Shown: piece by piece, positions 26,060 to 63,966 of the stretch | Layout of the letters: the number at the start of each line of letters is the position of its first letter | Position numbering within the stretch: position 1 is the stretch's first letter | Assembly: GCA_021770345.1 (NCBI GenBank) | Contig: JAETRD010000016.1 | Coordinates: 13,663-77,662, forward strand | DNA length: 64,000 nucleotides | DNA from: Lachnospiraceae bacterium | GTDB taxonomy: Bacteria; Bacillota; Clostridia; Lachnospirales; Lachnospiraceae | Reading direction: 5' to 3' | The notes under the pieces: generated by a model | What the model saw: the letters and a program-made list of their open reading frames with translations, nothing else | Told to the model about the DNA's origin: nothing | Databases searched by the model: none | Program-made: the position numbers and the translations under genes

Positions 26060-27283
26060 TTACCTCTTTTGGCGATTCGAATCGTTTATCATACGGACGT
26101 AGTCGGACGGTGACATACCGATATTTTTTTTGAAAAGTTTTCGAAAATAGGAGACATCGTCGATGCCGCACTGCGCGGCGACCTCCTGGATTCCGGTATG
26201 TCCCATGTTAAAAAGGCGGACGGCAAGACGTATCCGCTGCTGGTTGATGTAGGAGGATACCGTGACGCCCATCTCCTTTTTAAAGAGAGTAGAGAGGTAG
26301 CTTGGATTGACAAAATACTGGCCGGCCAGCTGTGTCAGAGACAGTTTTTCGGACAGATGGACACTGATATGATTGACAACCTTCCGAATGACGGAGGAGT
26401 GTTCCCGGAGGGAATAATTTCGAACCATAAGGCAGTACTGCCGCAGCATTTCTGTTCGCAGACAGCGTGATTCCTCTGCCGTCAGCACTTTCTCGGCTTC
26501 TTTTGCAAATTTTTCGGAGATACGGTCAATGTGAACGGGATGCACGCCGCCGGCTTCCACCGCTTTCCGAAGAAGGGTGTTAAAGACAATCAGGCCGTTG
26601 CGGATCTCGCGCAGTGAGTCGGAGTAGCGTCTTGCGAGACGATACTGTTGTGTGTGTCCGAGGATTTTGATGGCCGTTTCCGTATCGCCTCTCGCGACGG
26701 CGGACAACAGCTTTTCTTCAAGCGCATAGCGTTCCTCAATAATTTTGGCGGACAGGAAATCAGAAGAATCCTGCCGAAACTCAAAGTTGTAATCGTCGTG
26801 CAGGACATGGGAGAGCCGTACGGTCTGTTCCGGATAAAAAAGCTGGAACAGTTCCCGGCAGAGTTCGACCCACTGCTCCTCATGCAGCATGACGGGAACC
26901 GCGTTATAAAATTGGCGAAGCTCCCGCTCATATTCCGCGGGGACATGGTTGGCGTGCATAATGTCTGTGAGCATATGCTCTTCCATGGCATAACTCATAT
27001 ACGGTCCGACTACCAGAATACTCTTTTGGATAGTTTCCTGTTTCGGGAGCAGGCCGATGCAGTACGAGATGTCATAACTATCTTTGCAGCAGTAAAAAAC
27101 CGCTTCCTCTAACGTATTGAAAAAAGTCGTCTGTGCATGCTTTAATTCATCGGAATCGGTGTTGTAGAGCATATGGTACGGATAAAAATGCTCCGCGGAG
27201 TATTCGTCTTCCGTCATTACTTTTGTGTTAATTTTGCTGCTGCCTGTGAGTTTCTGCAGCACCGTCATCAGTTCTACTTTCAT
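26060..27283 (-). CDS. AraC-family transcriptional regulator with N-terminal sensory domain
   Basis: C-terminal double HTH (VNPSYLSTLFKKEMG...DVSYFRKLFKKNIGMSPSDY). Start uncertain (27283, 27268 or 27217). Confidence 0.88.
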   Translation of the reverse strand: MKVELMTVLQKLTGSSKINTKVMTEDEYSAEHFYPYHMLYNTDSDELKHAQTTFFNTLEEAVFYCCKDSYDISYCIGLLPKQETIQKSILVVGPYMSYAMEEHMLTDIMHANHVPAEYERELRQFYNAVPVMLHEEQWVELCRELFQLFYPEQTVRLSHVLHDDYNFEFRQDSSDFLSAKIIEERYALEEKLLSAVARGDTETAIKILGHTQQYRLARRYSDSLREIRNGLIVFNTLLRKAVEAGGVHPVHIDRISEKFAKEAEKVLTAEESRCLRTEMLRQYCLMVRNYSLREHSSVIRKVVNHISVHLSEKLSLTQLAGQYFVNPSYLSTLFKKEMGVTVSSYINQQRIRLAVRLFNMGHTGIQEVAAQCGIDDVSYFRKLFKKNIGMSPSDYVRMINDSNRQKR

Positions 27284-27803
27284 GGAGTTCGCTTTCTTTT
27301 TCCTTTAAGACGTCGTCATAGGCGGCCACGAGATATTCTCTCATCGGGTCATCCTTTGAGAGGTGCGCGACCGCGTCGGCGTAGATTTCTGCGGCCTCCT
27401 CCCTGGAGTCTGCATGGGCCATGCGGCTTTCTAAACTTTCCCGCATCGCCTGTACTCTGGCGGCCTGCTGGTAGAGGACGGGATTTTCGGACTGAAGGAA
27501 ACGCATTTCCTCCGGCGTCAGCTTTTTCCCGCTTTTGAGCTTTGCCATGATTTTGGCGAGATAGTCCTTTTTCTCTTCCTCGCTCATGCCGCAGGCGGGA
27601 CTGAGAAGTTCGGAAATCTGTCTGGAAATCTGAAAAGAGTCCAGCTTTGGGGCGGTGCAGGCCGTTTTGCCGGGTATCGCGGAAGCTTTGAGTTCGGAGC
27701 GGGAATGAGACGCCGCAAGGCTGTCGCGGATGCGCACGGCGGCGCTCTTGTTCTGGTTCCTGTGGAGAATTTGGCCGATGCCGCTCATATCAAAGGTTGC
27801 CAT
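27228..27803 (-). CDS. Hypothetical helical protein (KLKSGKKLTPEEMRFL...NP.LY motif)
   Basis: RBS AGGGAGG before ATG 27803; charged coiled-coil-like composition; no recognised domain. Confidence 0.7.
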   Translation of the reverse strand: MATFDMSGIGQILHRNQNKSAAVRIRDSLAASHSRSELKASAIPGKTACTAPKLDSFQISRQISELLSPACGMSEEEKKDYLAKIMAKLKSGKKLTPEEMRFLQSENPVLYQQAARVQAMRESLESRMAHADSREEAAEIYADAVAHLSKDDPMREYLVAAYDDVLKEKESELHESRTDDGAAETHRQQQN

Positions 27804-27821
27804 AAATATCCCTCCCTGTAT

Positions 27822-27894
27822 CGTACGCTTTGTCCATTGAGGGTAACTTCCGTCCCTCACTTTCGGATGGTGTGTCGCTGCTTTCTATATCGGC
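27822..27894 (-). promoter_or_regulatory. Putative sigmaD/sigma28 -10 box plus CsrA-type GGA-loop hairpin in the 5' UTR
   Basis: Minus strand GCCGATAT (27894-27887); downstream TGAGGG-ACGGAAGTTA-CCCTCA hairpin and ATGGA; -35 is poor (TTAT/CTTA). Confidence 0.45.
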
Positions 27895-27989
27895 AGAACG
27901 GGGAAGAAAATAAGAGGGCCAAAGCAGGAGAACCGACAGCCATTGAAAAATGCAGAGATTTTGTTATAATAAAGTCAGGAGGAATCTGT

Positions 27990-58626: not shown

Positions 58627-60624
58627 ATGTCGAACAGAAAGTGTTTATGGGTGATAAGTCGGACGATGAAAATAAGAGAGACACATTTGATAAATAAGAA
58701 TCCGCAAAAGAAAGCCAGCATGAAACAGAGGGTAAATATCAGTCTGCTGATTCTGTTTGTGATAGTTGTTTTGGTTTTTACCGGAGTCAACTGGTATCTG
58801 CAGAGGAAAGCTGCAGAGACAGATATGATCTATAATTCCGGCGAATTATTCTGGCAGGTAGAGCAGGTCATAAAACAAAATGCCGGGGAGCTTGACACTG
58901 TTACGGAGGATATACGGAACACCTGCATCTTAAATGCGGGCGCGGTGGCCTATTTGCTCGAATACGCGCCGGACTTTATTGAGGATAGAGCCGAGCTGCA
59001 AAAGATTGCGCGGCTTCTCGAGATAGACGAGATACATATTTTTAATACGGACGGAGTGATCTATGCCGGCACCGAGCCGCAGTATTACGGTTATTCCGTT
59101 GATTCCGGGGAGCAGATCGGCTTTTTTGCACCGATGCTTTCCGACAGGAAGCTGTCTCTGTGTCAGGAGATTGTTCCGAATACCGCAGAGGGAAAGCCGA
59201 TGCAGTACGCCGCGGTCTGGATGGAGGACGGCAGCAACATTGTGCAGATCGGGATTTCCCCGGAACGTGTCCTCGAACAGACGCGCAGAAACGAGCTGTC
59301 TTATATTTTTTCCATGTTTACAAATAATAATGCCGATATTCTGATGGCAATCGAGGAGACCGGAGGAGTTGTGCTGGCTTCCACCGCAAAGCAGTTTGAG
59401 GGAAAGGCATCATCGAAGCTTGGAATTTCCCCGGAATGGAATACCGCCGGGGAGAAGGGATATCATCTCTCGATCGGGGACATGCGGTATTACGGTGTCT
59501 TCCAAAGGACTGGCGGCACCGTCCTCGGACATCTGTACACGGAGGAGTATCTGTACCGCAATGTGAAGGAGGGAAGCCTGCGGCTGATCTTTTATCTGAT
59601 TCTTCTGCTGGGTGCGGTTACTCTGTTTATTTCCTGGTATATCGACAGGAATATTATCGTGTCGATCAACGGCATCATCCAAAAGCTCAAAGAGATTGCG
59701 GACGGCAATTTTAACGAGCAGGTGGATATCTCTGCAACGCCCGAATTTGCGGAACTCAGTCAGTATATCAACGGCATGGTGACCGGCATTCTGGAATCGG
59801 GGCAGCAGATTTCCGCGATTCTCGACGCGACGAATCTGCCGATCGGGACCTATCAGTACGGCGGCAATACAAAGCGGGTGCTTTACACCGGGCGTCTTCC
59901 GGAGATTATGGGAATGTCGGAGCGGGAGGCAGCGGAAGTATTTGCGGACAGCAGGGCATTTGAACGGCGGATGGATGCGTTAAAGCGGAATCATGTGCAG
60001 GGGCAGAGGGATGTATACTGTATGGAGGGGAGGCATCCGCGTTATCTCAAGATCGAGACGCATCCGAAACAGGGCGGCGTCTTCGGAATCTTGCTGGATA
60101 TCACGGAGACCGTGGAAGAAAAGCTGTATCTGGAGCGGGAACTCGGGCAGGATGAGCTGACCGGGCTTCCAAACCGCAGGGCGTTCTACCTGCAGATGGA
60201 AGAACTGTTTTCGGAACCTTCCGGTCTTGAAAATGCAGCGGTGCTGATGATCGATTCGGATGATTTAAAGAAGATCAACGATAATTACGGACATGAGTAC
60301 GGCGACAGGTATCTTTGCACGATCGCAAAGACACTGGAAGAGACGACGGCTCCGAACCGTGTGATCGCCCGCTTAAGCGGTGACGAATTTGCGGTATTTT
60401 TCTACGGGGCGGCGGATCGGGAGACGCTTGACGGCTATATCCGTGAACTGAAAGCCAACAGGGATTTCGGAGAGAGGCTGTCGGAAGAAGTGCAGATAGA
60501 ACTGCGGTTTTCAGTCGGTGTCGCCGTTTACGGTGAGGACGGCTGCAGCTATAAAATGCTTTTAAAGTGCGCGGATTCCAGAATGTATGAGGAAAAACGG
60601 CGGCGCAAAAACAGAGCGGTTTAA
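58627..60624 (+). CDS. Membrane sensor diguanylate cyclase (extracytoplasmic domain, HAMP, GGDEF); start uncertain
   Basis: Two TMs, DELTGLPNRRAF, IDSDDLKKIND.YGH..GD, ARLSGDEF. Confidence 0.85.
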   Translation: MSNRKCLWVISRTMKIRETHLINKNPQKKASMKQRVNISLLILFVIVVLVFTGVNWYLQRKAAETDMIYNSGELFWQVEQVIKQNAGELDTVTEDIRNTCILNAGAVAYLLEYAPDFIEDRAELQKIARLLEIDEIHIFNTDGVIYAGTEPQYYGYSVDSGEQIGFFAPMLSDRKLSLCQEIVPNTAEGKPMQYAAVWMEDGSNIVQIGISPERVLEQTRRNELSYIFSMFTNNNADILMAIEETGGVVLASTAKQFEGKASSKLGISPEWNTAGEKGYHLSIGDMRYYGVFQRTGGTVLGHLYTEEYLYRNVKEGSLRLIFYLILLLGAVTLFISWYIDRNIIVSINGIIQKLKEIADGNFNEQVDISATPEFAELSQYINGMVTGILESGQQISAILDATNLPIGTYQYGGNTKRVLYTGRLPEIMGMSEREAAEVFADSRAFERRMDALKRNHVQGQRDVYCMEGRHPRYLKIETHPKQGGVFGILLDITETVEEKLYLERELGQDELTGLPNRRAFYLQMEELFSEPSGLENAAVLMIDSDDLKKINDNYGHEYGDRYLCTIAKTLEETTAPNRVIARLSGDEFAVFFYGAADRETLDGYIRELKANRDFGERLSEEVQIELRFSVGVAVYGEDGCSYKMLLKCADSRMYEEKRRRKNRAV

Positions 60625-60678
60625 AACCGCGGGAGACTGTGCTATAATAACGGCAGGCAGGAAAAGAGGGAAGCGAAT

Positions 60679-61293
60679 ATGGAGACAAAAACATACGATT
60701 TGTGGGCGGACGGCTACGGAAGAGAGGTACATCTGCTGGACGACGGGGATGAGTATCCGGTGGCCGGTTATGCGAAGCTTCTGGCGGATGTATATGAGAC
60801 GGTGCGCACATCCGACGCGAAAAGGGTGCTGGACATGGGATTCGGTACGGGGATACTGACCAAAAAGCTGTATGCGGACGGTTATGAGATCGCGGGAGTT
60901 GATGCGTCGGAACAGCTGGTGGCTGCGGGGCGGCAATGCATGCCGGGGGCGAAGCTGGTGGCCGCGGACTATTCGTTCGGGATGCCGCTTGACTTTGTGA
61001 ATGCGGAATTTGATATGATTATCAGTACCTATGCGTTTCATCACATTGACCGTTACGAGAAGTCGGCGCTGATTCGGGATCTGCTGCGTGTGCTTAAGGA
61101 GGGCGGCAGACTGATTATCGGCGACCTCGCGTTTGAATCGATGGAAGCGCTGAAGGCATTCCGCGGCAGCAACCGGGAAAAATGGCTCTACGATCAGCAG
61201 TATATCGTCTATTCCCAGCTGGCCGGAGAGTTTGAGAACACGGAGTGGAAGCAGATTTCCGGGTGCGCGGGGATTGTCACGATCACAAAATAA
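60679..61293 (+). CDS. Class I SAM-dependent methyltransferase
   Basis: VLDMGFGTG, GVDASEQ, YAFHH, LKEGG. Confidence 0.85.
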   Translation: METKTYDLWADGYGREVHLLDDGDEYPVAGYAKLLADVYETVRTSDAKRVLDMGFGTGILTKKLYADGYEIAGVDASEQLVAAGRQCMPGAKLVAADYSFGMPLDFVNAEFDMIISTYAFHHIDRYEKSALIRDLLRVLKEGGRLIIGDLAFESMEALKAFRGSNREKWLYDQQYIVYSQLAGEFENTEWKQISGCAGIVTITK

Positions 61294-61327
61294 TCGTTAC
61301 AAAAACAGAACTTTTTATTACAAAAAA

Positions 61328-61450
61328 TGAAGGTTCTGTTTTTTTTGCCGATATATATAGTGTCGGAACATAAAAAGCTACGGATGGCGTCGGATTTCAC
61401 GGATGGAAACGGGGGAAACTGGCGCCTTTTTTGTGGGCGTTTGACAGGGA
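61328..61450 (+). promoter_or_regulatory. Putative sigmaD/sigma28 promoter plus CsrA-type sites
   Basis: TGAA-15 bp-GCCGATAT (61347-61354); ACGGAT hexaloops in short stems at 61380 and 61399; AGGGA near the RBS. Confidence 0.55.
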
Positions 61451-61468
61451 ACGACGGGGGGAATATGA

Positions 61469-62296
61469 GTGTTACGGGTGGCAATTTGTGATGAGGATGC
61501 CGTTTTCCGGGAACGTCTTTTTCGGGAAATCAATGCGCTGGCAGACTGCGAAATACGCCAGTATGAGAGCGGAAAGGCGCTGCCGGAGAACGGACATGGA
61601 TTTGACCTTATATTTTTGGAGGTCGAGGAGGAAAAGAGGGGGGAGATAGCGGTTGCAAAAAGGCTGCGGGAATCGGGCGTGCGGGTCGTGATTGTCAGCA
61701 GCGTGACAGAATTCGCGTTTGCGGCCTACGAGGCGGAGGCGTTTCAGTATCTGTGTAAGCCGATCGGTGAGGAGCGGCTTGCGCGTCTGCTTGACCGGGT
61801 GAGTGAAAAACAGGCTGCCTGTGAGCGGGAAACGTTTCTGGTGCGCGCAAACGGCTGCCATTACACGATCGAGAAGGGAGACATTCTCTATGTCGAAAAT
61901 ATGGCGCGCAAAGTGATTCTGCACATGAAGCACGGGGAAATCGCTTACTACGCGAAAATGCGCGAGGTGGAGGAGGCGCTCGGAACATCGTTTTACCGCT
62001 GTCACAGGGGATTTCTGGTAAATCTCGATGCGGTAAAAGGTTATGAGGCCGGAAATATTTTTTTAAAAAACGGGGAGTGCATTCTGATGGCAAAACAGAA
62101 GTATAACGAGTTTGCCGAAGTTTATGCGATGTACTTAAGACGGGTGAAAAACCTGAGAAACAGAAAGCGGGGAAATGAGTATGAGAATCGGAAACAGAGC
62201 GAATATGGTAATCATGAACGCCAGGCTGAAACGGCAGTCGAGGACGCAGTCGCTGATAAAAAGAAACACGAAAAAAGTGTCGTCCGGGGGATTTAA
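61469..62296 (+). CDS. Orphan atypical LytTR response regulator (phosphoacceptor Asp replaced by Glu)
   Basis: VAICDED, DLIFLEV, YLCKP, LytTR FYRCHRGFLVN; GTG start after GGGGGGA. Confidence 0.8.
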   Translation: MLRVAICDEDAVFRERLFREINALADCEIRQYESGKALPENGHGFDLIFLEVEEEKRGEIAVAKRLRESGVRVVIVSSVTEFAFAAYEAEAFQYLCKPIGEERLARLLDRVSEKQAACERETFLVRANGCHYTIEKGDILYVENMARKVILHMKHGEIAYYAKMREVEEALGTSFYRCHRGFLVNLDAVKGYEAGNIFLKNGECILMAKQKYNEFAEVYAMYLRRVKNLRNRKRGNEYENRKQSEYGNHERQAETAVEDAVADKKKHEKSVVRGI

Positions 62297-62915
62297 ATCA
62301 AAGACGAATCAGTCGCTGCTCGCCGCGCTGAATAAAAACAGCGGCGAGAAGACAAACGGCGCGACGCTGGCAGAAAATCAGAGCAAGAGCTACGATTACG
62401 GCATTGTGGAGACTTCGGCGGAGCGGGTCGGCAGTTATCTTGCCGCGCTTGGTGAGACCGGAGAAAAGTCTGTCTATGAGAAGGAAGATGCCAAAGCGGC
62501 GGTGGAGAAGGAGCTGCAGTCATTTGTGAGCAATTACAATATTATGCTGCGCAAGTTAAAGAGCATCGGCGGGACCGTAAACAGTGCCTACGAGAAAAAG
62601 TTAAAAGATATGATCGCGGCGAAGAAGGAAGAGTTTGGGAAGTTCGGAATTTCCCAGAATGTGAACGGCACGCTTGAGTTTGATGTGAAAACATTCCGGA
62701 ATGCGGATGTTGCGGCGGCGAAGGACTTTTTTGCGGGGGAGAGCGGGATGGCGTCAAAGCTTCTCGCCCAGACAAAACAGATCGAAACTCACGCCGCAGA
62801 CCAGATTGCGGCGCTCAAGAAGAGCAGCTATGCGCTCTGCAGTAACTACAGCCGCTATGGAAGCAGCATATACGACAACGGCGTTTCCGGGTACAAATAT
62901 AATGCCAGAGGGTAA
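62175..62915 (+). CDS. Hypothetical protein with a FliD C-terminal-like segment
   Basis: FVSNYN...L.KL...FGIS.N.NGTLEFD...F..A......FAG..G resembles the FliD_C pattern; disordered Lys/Ser/Asn N-terminus. Confidence 0.55.
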   Translation: MSMRIGNRANMVIMNARLKRQSRTQSLIKRNTKKVSSGGFKSKTNQSLLAALNKNSGEKTNGATLAENQSKSYDYGIVETSAERVGSYLAALGETGEKSVYEKEDAKAAVEKELQSFVSNYNIMLRKLKSIGGTVNSAYEKKLKDMIAAKKEEFGKFGISQNVNGTLEFDVKTFRNADVAAAKDFFAGESGMASKLLAQTKQIETHAADQIAALKKSSYALCSNYSRYGSSIYDNGVSGYKYNARG

Positions 62916-62952
62916 ATGTGAAGCGGTTTCGTGCAGCGGAACCGCTTCACAT
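62916..62952. other. Intercistronic hairpin without a U-tract
   Basis: ATGTGAAGCGGTT/AACCGCTTCACAT. Confidence 0.55.
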
Positions 62953-63009
62953 CGAAGCGCGCAGACACAGCGTTTTTCCGATGACTTGTTTAGGGTTAAA
63001 GCGAAGAAA

Positions 63010-63966
63010 ATGATGGGGACAGAAAATCGGGGCAGGATGCAGCGCGACACGCTGGAAATCTCTGCGATATGGGAGGATGAGATAGTTCTCTCCGAGAACT
63101 ATGAAGATATTTCGGATAATGTGCGGAATGTCAGTGTATGGAATACGGAAGCTGTCTATGAGATTGCAAATGAGACCCTGCAGAAATATTACGAGGGCGT
63201 GTTTGATATGGTGACGGTGGGAGATCTGTTCTGCAGCTGCTATTTGAAGTGCATCGCGCAGAAGGAGTACTCCGATGCATACGGACAGACAAAGCTTGAG
63301 ATTCTCGGCACAATCTATGAGTATTTCTGCAGGGCGAACGCGAGAAAGAGCGTGGTGCAAAACGAGTCTGAGGGAAGGCGGCTTATCGAGGAGTGTGGTC
63401 TGACCTGGGCCGGCACGACTTATTATGATTCCCAATATTACTACAAGTGTATGGAGATGCAGAAAAATCTGGGGATGCTCTGTGACGAGATCTGTGACGA
63501 GTGGGGGATGAGAGGACTCGAATTCGGAGAAATCGAATCGCACAGCAGATTCCGGCCGGTGGGAGGCATGCGGTTTCACGGGGTGTTTGTCTGGGCGCAG
63601 ATGAAGGATAATTACCCCTGCAATCAATACGGGCTCAAGGATGAGCGCATGGAACCGCCGGAGCACTTTGTCTATCTGTATCGGAATCATCTGAAAGAGG
63701 AGGAGAGGGGAGCGGTAGAACGGCTCGGAGCCCGTATGAAGGAACGGCTCCGAAAGGCTGTGCCCGGGGAGGAACACTGCCTGTGGCGAAGCTTTCTCTT
63801 GAGCGGGGACCGAAATTATCACAACGGTATGAGTTATCTGCTCGAGGGAAACATCCAGGACGCACGGGACGAGAAGCTGTACTGTGACGCCATGGATTTC
63901 CTCGCAAATTTCAGGCTGTACCGGGTAAACGGGTGTGTGGAATATCTGCACGCCTGCAGTTTATGA
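63010..63966 (+). CDS. Hypothetical protein (Cys/Tyr-rich)
   Basis: Long ORF with natural composition; start uncertain; no recognised domain. Confidence 0.7.
   Translation: MMGTENRGRMQRDTLEISAIWEDEIVLSENYEDISDNVRNVSVWNTEAVYEIANETLQKYYEGVFDMVTVGDLFCSCYLKCIAQKEYSDAYGQTKLEILGTIYEYFCRANARKSVVQNESEGRRLIEECGLTWAGTTYYDSQYYYKCMEMQKNLGMLCDEICDEWGMRGLEFGEIESHSRFRPVGGMRFHGVFVWAQMKDNYPCNQYGLKDERMEPPEHFVYLYRNHLKEEERGAVERLGARMKERLRKAVPGEEHCLWRSFLLSGDRNYHNGMSYLLEGNIQDARDEKLYCDAMDFLANFRLYRVNGCVEYLHACSL

Follow-up and report, generated by a model that had tools for sequence, protein, structure and literature searches.

A sigma-28-type promoter and a conserved terminator-type leader RNA precede a LytTR regulator operon in Lachnospiraceae

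We analyzed a 64,000-nucleotide stretch of DNA from a Lachnospiraceae bacterium (GenBank assembly GCA_021770345.1, contig JAETRD010000016.1; C40:13663-77662 in our numbering), referred to here as the window. It belongs to a 3.9-Mb genome, 51.5% GC and 99.6% complete, whose closest public relative is an uncultured mouse-gut Roseburia metagenome-assembled genome (MAG). The final 2.7 kb of the window hold an operon of three genes, which encode an atypical LytTR-type regulator (gene 1), a protein resembling the C-terminal region of FliD (gene 2) and a protein of unmatched function and fold (gene 3). We found that the operon is preceded by a sigma-28 (FliA/SigD)-type promoter with two direct repeats against its -35 element, and that its transcript would begin with a conserved leader RNA in which one GGA site precedes a terminator-type hairpin and a second lies in the hairpin's apical part. 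On balance we favor the view that this is a late-flagellar sigma-28 operon under LytTR autoregulation, in which CsrA bridging the two GGA sites would tune the leader terminator, although considerable doubt attaches to this combination as a whole.

Results

A conserved sigma-28-type promoter

The promoter lies on the plus strand at 61328..61354 and reads TGAA(GGTT)-N15-GCCGATAT. Its -35 element, TGAA (61328-61331), agrees with TAAA at three of four positions. A spacer of exactly 15 nt separates it from the -10 element at 61347-61354, which fits the pattern GCCGATA[AT]. The regulator, gene 2 and gene 3 occur in the same order at 15 further loci within the same genus, with varying flanks. The original prediction, which had proposed a sigma-D promoter here, offered conservation upstream of orthologues as a check, and we found that GCCGATATA is invariant upstream of all 15 of these syntenic operons while the regulators themselves are only 38-81% identical. 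The orthologous -35 reads T[GAC]AA at N15, and in one operon it is TAAA. Since the box is kept in every one of the syntenic operons, it is more than a chance occurrence. Across the 39 promoters linked to the leader motif described below, the consensus is TAAA-N15-GCCGATAT.

The -10 word is informative only in this setting. The window has 8 copies of GCCGATAT where 2.8 would be expected. Genome-wide there are 352, most of them within genes, and the reversed word has about 136. The caution voiced earlier that this 8-mer also falls at implausible sites was therefore justified; alone it is weak evidence, and as a genome-wide marker we rejected it because it is too frequent in coding DNA. The strict form T[ACG]AA-N15-GCCGATAT has only 2 intergenic sites in the genome, because the -35 used locally is TAA[AGC]. 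Intergenic TAA[AGC]-N16-CCGATATA boxes precede two flagellins, flaG, flgN, a rod gene, a fliK-like gene and a DUF6240 gene in this genome. The predicted wiring presupposes fliA and csrA, and both are present: the genome encodes fliA (272 bits), fliW, two csrA genes, a canonical fliD and eight flagellin_N open reading frames (ORFs).

The enteric sigma-28 consensus is TAAAGTTT-N11-GCCGATAA, which the window resembles when read as TGAAGGTT-N11-GCCGATAT. Nearer to this organism, a sigma-28 consensus of TAAA / MCGATAa has been published for Butyrivibrio, Roseburia and Eubacterium (Neville et al. 2013, PMC3720852). Those flagellin promoters share the -10 core, the spacing and the bacterial family with ours; they were described only for fliC, whereas ours drives a regulator operon and has a TGAA -35 with LytTR-type repeats beside it.

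We considered whether the motifs could be accidental or the promoter a housekeeping one, with the three genes unrelated to motility. The frequency of GCCGATAT in coding DNA would fit this, as would the departure of the -35 from TAAA, which also tells against our own reading, and none of the three proteins is a canonical flagellar part. However, an invariant GCCGATATA in 15 of 15 orthologues whose proteins share just 38-50% identity and the conservation of the position-locked repeats both argue against it, no sigma-70-like site was found within 61290-61470, and gene 2 is FliD_C-like. We find this explanation scarcely credible. The presence of fliA, the box in front of late flagellar genes, its invariance among orthologues and the consensus of the 39 linked promoters all bear out the sigma-D claim, and sequence comparison strongly supports sigma-28 (SigD/FliA) wiring of the operon.

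The window contains a second sigma-28-type box, on the minus strand (27228-27900, with GCCGATAT at 27887-27894), which has a poor -35. Downstream come a GAGGG-ACGGAAGUUA-CCCUC hairpin, AUGGA and a GGGAGGGA Shine-Dalgarno, without a terminator-type leader, and the gene behind the box encodes a 210-aa Pfam-less protein (MATFDMSGIGQ...).

A terminator-type leader RNA

Downstream of the promoter, on the plus strand, lies the leader RNA element (61373..61435). It opens with the 5' GGA box GCUACGGAUGG, whose GGA (GGA1) is at 61382-61384. A hairpin follows (61382-61430), in which GGAUGGCGUCGG (61382-61393) pairs with CUGGCGCCUUUU (61419-61430), the core arms being 61386-61393 and 61419-61426. Its apical part, UUUC-ACGGAUG-GAAA (61395-61409), presents the second GGA (GGA2, 61401-61403), and a run of six U residues lies at 61427-61432. 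The terminator-type stem has 16 predicted pairs and a predicted energy of about -20 kcal/mol, with the UUUC/GAAA helix as an extension. Further on, AGGGA (61446-61450) and a G-rich Shine-Dalgarno, GGGGGGA (61456-61462), stand ahead of the GTG start at 61469; this segment (61446..61462, plus strand) is a possible third CsrA-type site. Both GACAGGGA and GGGGAGGA recur in orthologous leaders.

The sequence features on which the original prediction was built, namely TGAA and the -10 box, the two ACGGAT words, AGGGA and three co-oriented ORFs, were all found where it had placed them. It described two ACGGAU hexaloops on short stems. The positions are right, as ACGGAT(GG) at 61380 and 61399 makes up two of only four ACGGATGG copies in the window, and short stems (GCU/GGC, UUUC/GGAA) could form; the conserved structure, however, is the 16-pair terminator-type hairpin, which it had missed.

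We found the same hairpin in eleven orthologous leaders and built a first covariance model from them. Covariance-model matches to the window leader scored 71.7 and 67.3 bits. With a set of 28 sequences in a model-fitted alignment, 98.2% of cells pair, and compensatory change on both sides is seen in 9 of the 16 pairs and in 40 cells. In a shuffle control 0 of 500 replicates reached the observed covariation, and slid controls paired at 41-57%. The leader is present in 39 of the 151 genomes searched in the genus, its own genome included, and with a second covariance model we detected it in 9 of the 150 other genera searched in the family. The family pattern begins with GCUA-N-GGAUGG(C), after which come a terminator-type hairpin, carrying a second GGA 18-20 nt from the first, and a U-run; an example of the apical part elsewhere is UUCAA-NGGA-UUGAA. 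Among 42 distinct copies, GGA1 is present in 41, the loop GGA in 38 and the U-run in 41.

In 39 of the 42 copies a sigma-28-like -10 stands upstream of the element, at a median distance of 6 nt. The leader therefore amounts in essence to the RNA's own 5' end, and many copies begin no more than a few nt from where the transcript is predicted to start. A genome may have up to three copies. The genes behind them are regulator operons, gene 2-like genes alone, gene 3 alone, DUF6240, LytTR-only mini-proteins and several Pfam-less proteins. In one close relative gene 3 comes after a methyltransferase gene and has a box and leader of its own. Several copies place a Shine-Dalgarno 14-20 nt past the U-run. 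The gene behind such a leader would be expressible only by read-through, which makes the element cis-regulatory.

These observations also bear on the idea that the leader is really a small RNA of about 60 nt, driven by sigma-28, that titrates CsrA alongside FliW as a decoy and lets downstream genes be expressed as a by-product of read-through. It does form a complete promoter-terminator unit with two CsrA-type sites in up to three copies per genome, and sponge RNAs of such logic (CsrB/RsmZ) are known in Gammaproteobacteria. However, the element always lies directly upstream of a co-oriented gene, the short distance from U-run to Shine-Dalgarno often leaves no space for a second promoter, and one dimer per RNA makes a poor sponge. 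We give the decoy little weight.

Other identities for the element were examined. No Rfam 15 model, TwoAYGGAY and Termite-flg included, matches it, whether in the window (E cut-off 10) or at nine other loci (E cut-off 5). A c-di-GMP or other known riboswitch is unsupported despite an upstream GGDEF gene, as the Rfam scans gave no leader match. A leader peptide was rejected because some copies lose the AUG of GGAUGG, having GGAA or GGAC instead, and the length of the mini-ORF varies. A Shine-Dalgarno-like 5' stabilizer is disfavored, since in 30 of 41 copies GGA1 is followed by U, where a Shine-Dalgarno would have G. In the literature we searched, no publication describes this RNA family or a sigma-28-driven LytTR tier.

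We saw no competing antiterminator fold, in that a conserved upstream pairing partner was not found in the family copies. A trans-acting factor would thus be needed to regulate the hairpin. Such a factor might be an ANTAR-like or other antiterminator protein that reads two hexaloops, or a small molecule acting through a riboswitch. Two-hexaloop ANTAR targets have A at position 1 and G at position 4. Both ACGGAU loops in the window have these bases, and the terminator's 5' arm shares sequence with the first mini-stem (GCU/GGC). Across the family, however, the second loop ranges from 4 to 8 nt and is no hexaloop (e.g. UUCAA-AGGA-UUGAA), which disfavors ANTAR, and against a riboswitch there is no multi-helix junction or conserved riboswitch-type pocket, loop and length vary, and Rfam offers no riboswitch match. 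A factor of either kind is very unlikely.

A number of leaders touch on further gene families. The 1073-aa DUF6240 gene of this genome (G000 C81:208729-208870; L150:294-359, minus strand) has a sigma-28 box and a weak second copy of the leader, a long-stem variant (AGCUACGGACGGCG..., 26 bits), and DUF6240 also lies behind a leader in another genome (L139). A supposed third copy in this genome, on contig C52, was rejected as a chance match inside coding-looking DNA. In other genera, proteins of 110-115 aa that look by eye like LytTR domains without a receiver stand directly behind a sigma-28 box and leader (L145:1152-1481, L146:1573-1917). Several leader-driven proteins of unmatched function in other genomes (downstream ORFs of L125-L138) start M-x-I-x-G-[IV]-G...Y-x-Q-N-[YF]. 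This start resembles FlgM N-termini, and it could be a shared export or recognition signal.

Candidate CsrA sites in the leader

In the leader family GGA1 occurs in the context A-[AUC]-GGA-U-G and GGA2 in the context CA-N-GGA-U. Both are close to RUACARGGAUGU, the SELEX-derived CsrA consensus, and both resemble the RsmE-bound hcnA hairpin. The two GGA sites are 19 nt apart in the window and 18-20 nt apart in 33 of 38 copies. This agrees with the optimum of about 18 nt reported for CsrA dual-site bridging, for which the range is 10-63 nt. ACGGAU or ACGGA loops are also found in this genome in the leaders of the flagellin that adjoins csrA, of a second flagellin and of flaG. AYGGAW occurs at 4.4 per kb in sigma-28 leaders and at 1.8 per kb in controls.

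One csrA gene of the genome is canonical and adjoins fliW, and the other is divergent (54.5 bits) (G000 C5:68599-69496 and C81:159164-159734). Immediately downstream of the divergent gene is a flagellin gene; its leader contains a CGGGA-ACGGAU-UCCCG hairpin as well as an ACGGAGG Shine-Dalgarno.

Several observations weigh against CsrA and, with it, against our overall reading. In a crude collection of sigma-28 leaders the enrichment of GGA motifs is only about 1.5-fold, and intergenic DNA overall shows no enrichment of GGA hairpins. CsrA is found in 132 of 151 genomes of the genus and in 37 of the 39 that bear the motif, so that co-occurrence is non-discriminating. In the subgroup of leaders that precede regulator operons, the 5' half is nearly invariant, and there GGA cannot be separated from general conservation. 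The alignment used for covariation had been fitted to the model. A 2020 review and the literature searched connect CsrA with Rho-dependent termination, but name no case in which it controls an intrinsic terminator. The two motif-bearing genomes without a CsrA match are incomplete MAGs (74% and 86%), and csrA paralogue number per genome shows no relation to the leader motif. The AGGGA and GGGGGGA near the start codon are likewise non-discriminating, since any such Shine-Dalgarno contains GGA. The original prediction had asked whether flagellin shares the pattern; it does so in its sigma-28 box and in the ACGGA(U) loops of flagellin leaders, while the enrichment of GGA across sigma-28 leaders is weak.

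The leader might also work without CsrA, as a constitutive leaky terminator or a 5' stabilizer that throttles or protects late transcripts, with GGA kept for folding or some other reason. GGA1 can pair with the U-run in the consensus fold (G-U, G-U, A-U, U-A), and this pairing could explain why both are conserved. The lack of a conserved antiterminator fold upstream points the same way; in several copies the RNA must start at the element, and 4 of the 42 copies have no loop GGA. Against this, GGA1 persists in all copies but one while the neighboring stem covaries freely, the base that follows GGA is U as in the CsrA consensus and not the G of a Shine-Dalgarno, and the spacing of the two sites is held. 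We consider CsrA-independence rather unlikely.

A CsrA layer on the leader is therefore plausible from the base context and spacing of its GGA sites, and it is as the ligand of this leader that we infer CsrA. This part of the original prediction fared well in its GGA contexts. It had proposed control of translation; because the GGA sites sit in and beside the terminator hairpin, control of transcription elongation is more likely than control of translation only.

A close parallel is hag of B. subtilis, whose leader has two CsrA sites and which is the target of the Hag-FliW-CsrA switch; it shares the SigD promoter, GGA in a hairpin loop, a GGA-containing Shine-Dalgarno, and fliW and csrA. It differs in that the cargo here is a transcription factor and proteins of unmatched function rather than flagellin. 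Here the GGA sites flank and crown an intrinsic-terminator hairpin, implying elongation control; we know of no such hairpin in the hag leader. The TwoAYGGAY RNA motif, reported from human gut, Clostridiales and gamma-proteobacteria and listed as not cis-regulatory (Weinberg et al. 2010, PMC2864571), also has two AYGGAY elements in hairpins (ACGGAU twice here) and occurs in gut Clostridiales. Our element differs from it in placing one GGA 5' of a long terminator stem and the other in its loop, and in being cis-regulatory. In the E. coli pgaA leader, as summarized in a later review, CsrA remodels the RNA and promotes Rho-dependent termination (Figueroa-Bossi 2014, cited in PMC7652899). If CsrA acts here, the logic that this summary gives, control of transcript elongation through two sites in a leader hairpin, would be shared. 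The pgaA case as summarized there is Rho-dependent with Rho utilization (rut) sites, whereas the terminator here is intrinsic and belongs to a sigma-28-specific leader family.

An atypical LytTR regulator and its candidate operator

Gene 1 (61469..62296, plus strand, GTG start) encodes a LytTR-type regulator with a degenerate receiver, and its 3' end overlaps gene 2 by 116 nt. The protein matches Pfam LytTR (PF04397) at E=2.3e-17, and Response_reg at 31.4 bits against a cut-off of 30.2. In the column of the phospho-acceptor gene 1 has Glu, and 15 orthologues have Glu in 8, Ala in 3, Lys in 2 and Asp in 2, so that Asp is replaced in 13 of 15. The description of the regulator as atypical is borne out by this substitution of Glu, Ala or Lys for the phospho-Asp in most orthologues. 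At the locus no kinase gene is adjacent to the regulator gene. Because the phospho-Asp is replaced and no kinase gene adjoins, the regulator is probably independent of phosphorylation and its activity set by its amount, as judged from these sequence features, and this would fit the heavy control of its expression.

The overlapping stretch of the regulator ORF (62181-62296) encodes a Lys/Glu-rich tail of about 40 aa in another frame over gene 2, which is present only here and in the closest relative. The other orthologous regulators stop at or just before the gene 2 start, in an ATGA-type overlap that suggests translational coupling in those orthologues.

Upstream of the promoter and abutting the -35 we found two direct repeats, GTTACAAAAA (61296-61305) and ATTACAAAAA (61317-61326), 21 bp apart on the plus strand (61296..61326), which form a candidate LytTR operator. 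In all 14 orthologous promoters examined (14/14), T[TG]AC pairs occur at a fixed 21-bp spacing and a fixed distance to the -10. A genome search found no further LytTR-box pair, making this pair unique in the genome. The operon has retained its repeats despite the GGDEF and methyltransferase genes apparently inserted upstream of it relative to the closest relative.

Classic LytTR operators consist of paired direct repeats of about 9 bp with a 12-bp spacer beside the -35, and the agr (P2/P3, with AgrA), plnA and comCDE promoters that carry them are autoregulated. Since the repeats here have this layout beside the -35, we infer that they are candidate LytTR boxes through which the encoded LytTR protein, by analogy, would activate its own promoter. 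In common with agr, plnA and comCDE, the operon codes for a LytTR protein, and a pair of direct repeats of about 10 bp, set 21 bp apart, adjoins the -35. It differs from them in its sigma-28-type promoter, a regulator without the phospho-acceptor Asp, the lack of a kinase gene nearby and a box sequence of its own (GTTACAAAA).

In six leader-bearing promoters from other genomes (L126, L128, L136, L140, L141 and L149) we observed that GGGTTTCGTTCC-type boxes recur at a distance of about 22 bp immediately before the -35 and 30-60 nt upstream of the sigma-28 -10, some of them before LytTR regulators with a normal Asp. From their sequence and placement these look like a different LytTR operator joined to the same promoter-plus-leader module.

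A hairpin (AACAGAAC.../...GTTCTGTT) with a T-run overlies the box spacer and the -35 (61304..61346, plus strand), and a weak mir-471-like match is this same hairpin. It may be the terminator of the upstream methyltransferase gene. It is found only in the window and in the closest relative, which has no co-oriented upstream gene.

Genes 2 and 3

Gene 2 (62181..62915, plus strand) encodes a 244-aa helical protein with a basic N-terminus (MRIGNR...) and a segment like the C-terminus of FliD. When 15 homologues are combined in a profile, it matches Pseudomonas FliD (5fhy) in its C-terminal region (E=2.6e-8), and Pfam FliD_C (PF07195) matches 8 of the 15 family members. The protein of the window has no Pfam match of its own, so it is at the level of the profile and the family that the FliD-C-like label given to it earlier holds. 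We found no FliD_N match in gene 2 or in its family members, and the head (D2/D3) domains are missing. The AlphaFold2 model is a helical bundle with two tiny strands (predicted local distance difference test score, pLDDT, 74.6) whose best fold matches, to FliD 9gnz/6sih, are weak. All 233 database relatives found are unnamed or 'hypothetical'.

Gene 2 thus shares with the FliD/HAP2 cap the C-terminal helical region. It is 244 aa long, against 943 aa for the ORF at the canonical fliD locus elsewhere in the genome, and it has its own conserved Tyr-rich tail. Because of this tail and the lack of FliD_N and head domains, it cannot be a cap as known. Two more distant homologues begin MRITNN and MRITTQ, in the manner of the FlgL-type ORF of this genome (MRITNNM). 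Export of the gene 2 product is speculation.

Gene 3 (63010..63966, plus strand; the start may lie further upstream) encodes a 318-aa protein for which we found no match in Pfam, PDB sequences or PDB folds; a search of 5.8 billion proteins gave no function. Its AlphaFold2 model is of good quality by score (pLDDT 80.7, predicted template modeling score 0.80), and the best Foldseek TM score is 0.22 or lower. About 85 database clusters of relatives are all hypothetical. In more distant orthologues the gap between genes 2 and 3 is 260-360 nt and encodes a conserved ER-YRR-x-FWGT-FLE peptide segment. The occurrence of this segment in the gap of relatives suggests that gene 3 here may have lost an N-terminal extension.

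The locus

The three co-oriented ORFs (61469-62296, 62181-62915 and 63010-63966) are followed by a convergent gene on the other strand. Between genes 2 and 3, on the plus strand, is a 17-bp perfect hairpin without a U-run (62916..62954), a possible processing or stability element or weak terminator; it is weaker in the closest relative and absent from more distant relatives. Upstream, a gene for a diguanylate cyclase (HAMP + GGDEF) and one for an S-adenosylmethionine methyltransferase (58627-61293) separate the regulator operon from a gntR-ABC operon. In the closest relative (L048), as at other orthologous loci, gntR and the regulator operon are direct divergent neighbors, and for this reason the two genes look inserted.

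Discussion

The mechanism that we favor can be set out along the transcript. Transcription would start a few bases downstream of GCCGATAT, and the LytTR-type repeats beside the weak TGAA -35 would probably strengthen it, which would make the autoregulation positive. In the RNA, the first ~60 nt would then consist of a single-stranded GGA box followed by a GC-rich hairpin and U-run acting as an intrinsic terminator, whose apical loop would present the second GGA 19 nt downstream of the first. A CsrA dimer bridging both sites on the nascent RNA would change how often the terminator forms. Because both GGA sites are transcribed before the 3' arm, the dimer could act co-transcriptionally. The direction of its effect could be either of two: by holding the 5' arm the bound dimer could favor read-through, or by clamping the apical hairpin it could favor termination. 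The further CsrA-type site at the Shine-Dalgarno may add translational control. As FliW and flagellin set CsrA activity, the operon would be coupled to the state of secretion, and it would be expressed only if sigma-28 activity coincides with the right state of flagellin secretion.

A bolder version may be put forward, one that we hold tentatively and think doubtful in its entirety. In it the GCUA-N-GGAUGG leaders would be the first CsrA-operated intrinsic attenuators, through which the FliW-CsrA-flagellin checkpoint gates a 'dark' late regulon in Lachnospiraceae. This regulon would include a self-activating, phosphorylation-independent LytTR tier below sigma-28, and a mini-FliD that is perhaps exported through, or acts on, the flagellar export apparatus.

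Flagellar hierarchies are usually drawn as ending at sigma-28 and the late structural genes. Here sigma-28 appears also to drive a transcription factor and protein families of unmatched function, suggesting an extra regulatory tier that is tied to flagellum assembly. The host group are abundant gut commensals, and flagellins are major immune stimuli. The promoter plus leader is a compact, portable module. If our reading is correct, the leader would represent a new class of regulatory RNA and a new mode of CsrA action, and it would provide an entry point to uncharacterized proteins linked to motility in these bacteria, namely the gene 2 and gene 3 families, DUF6240 and the LytTR-only proteins.

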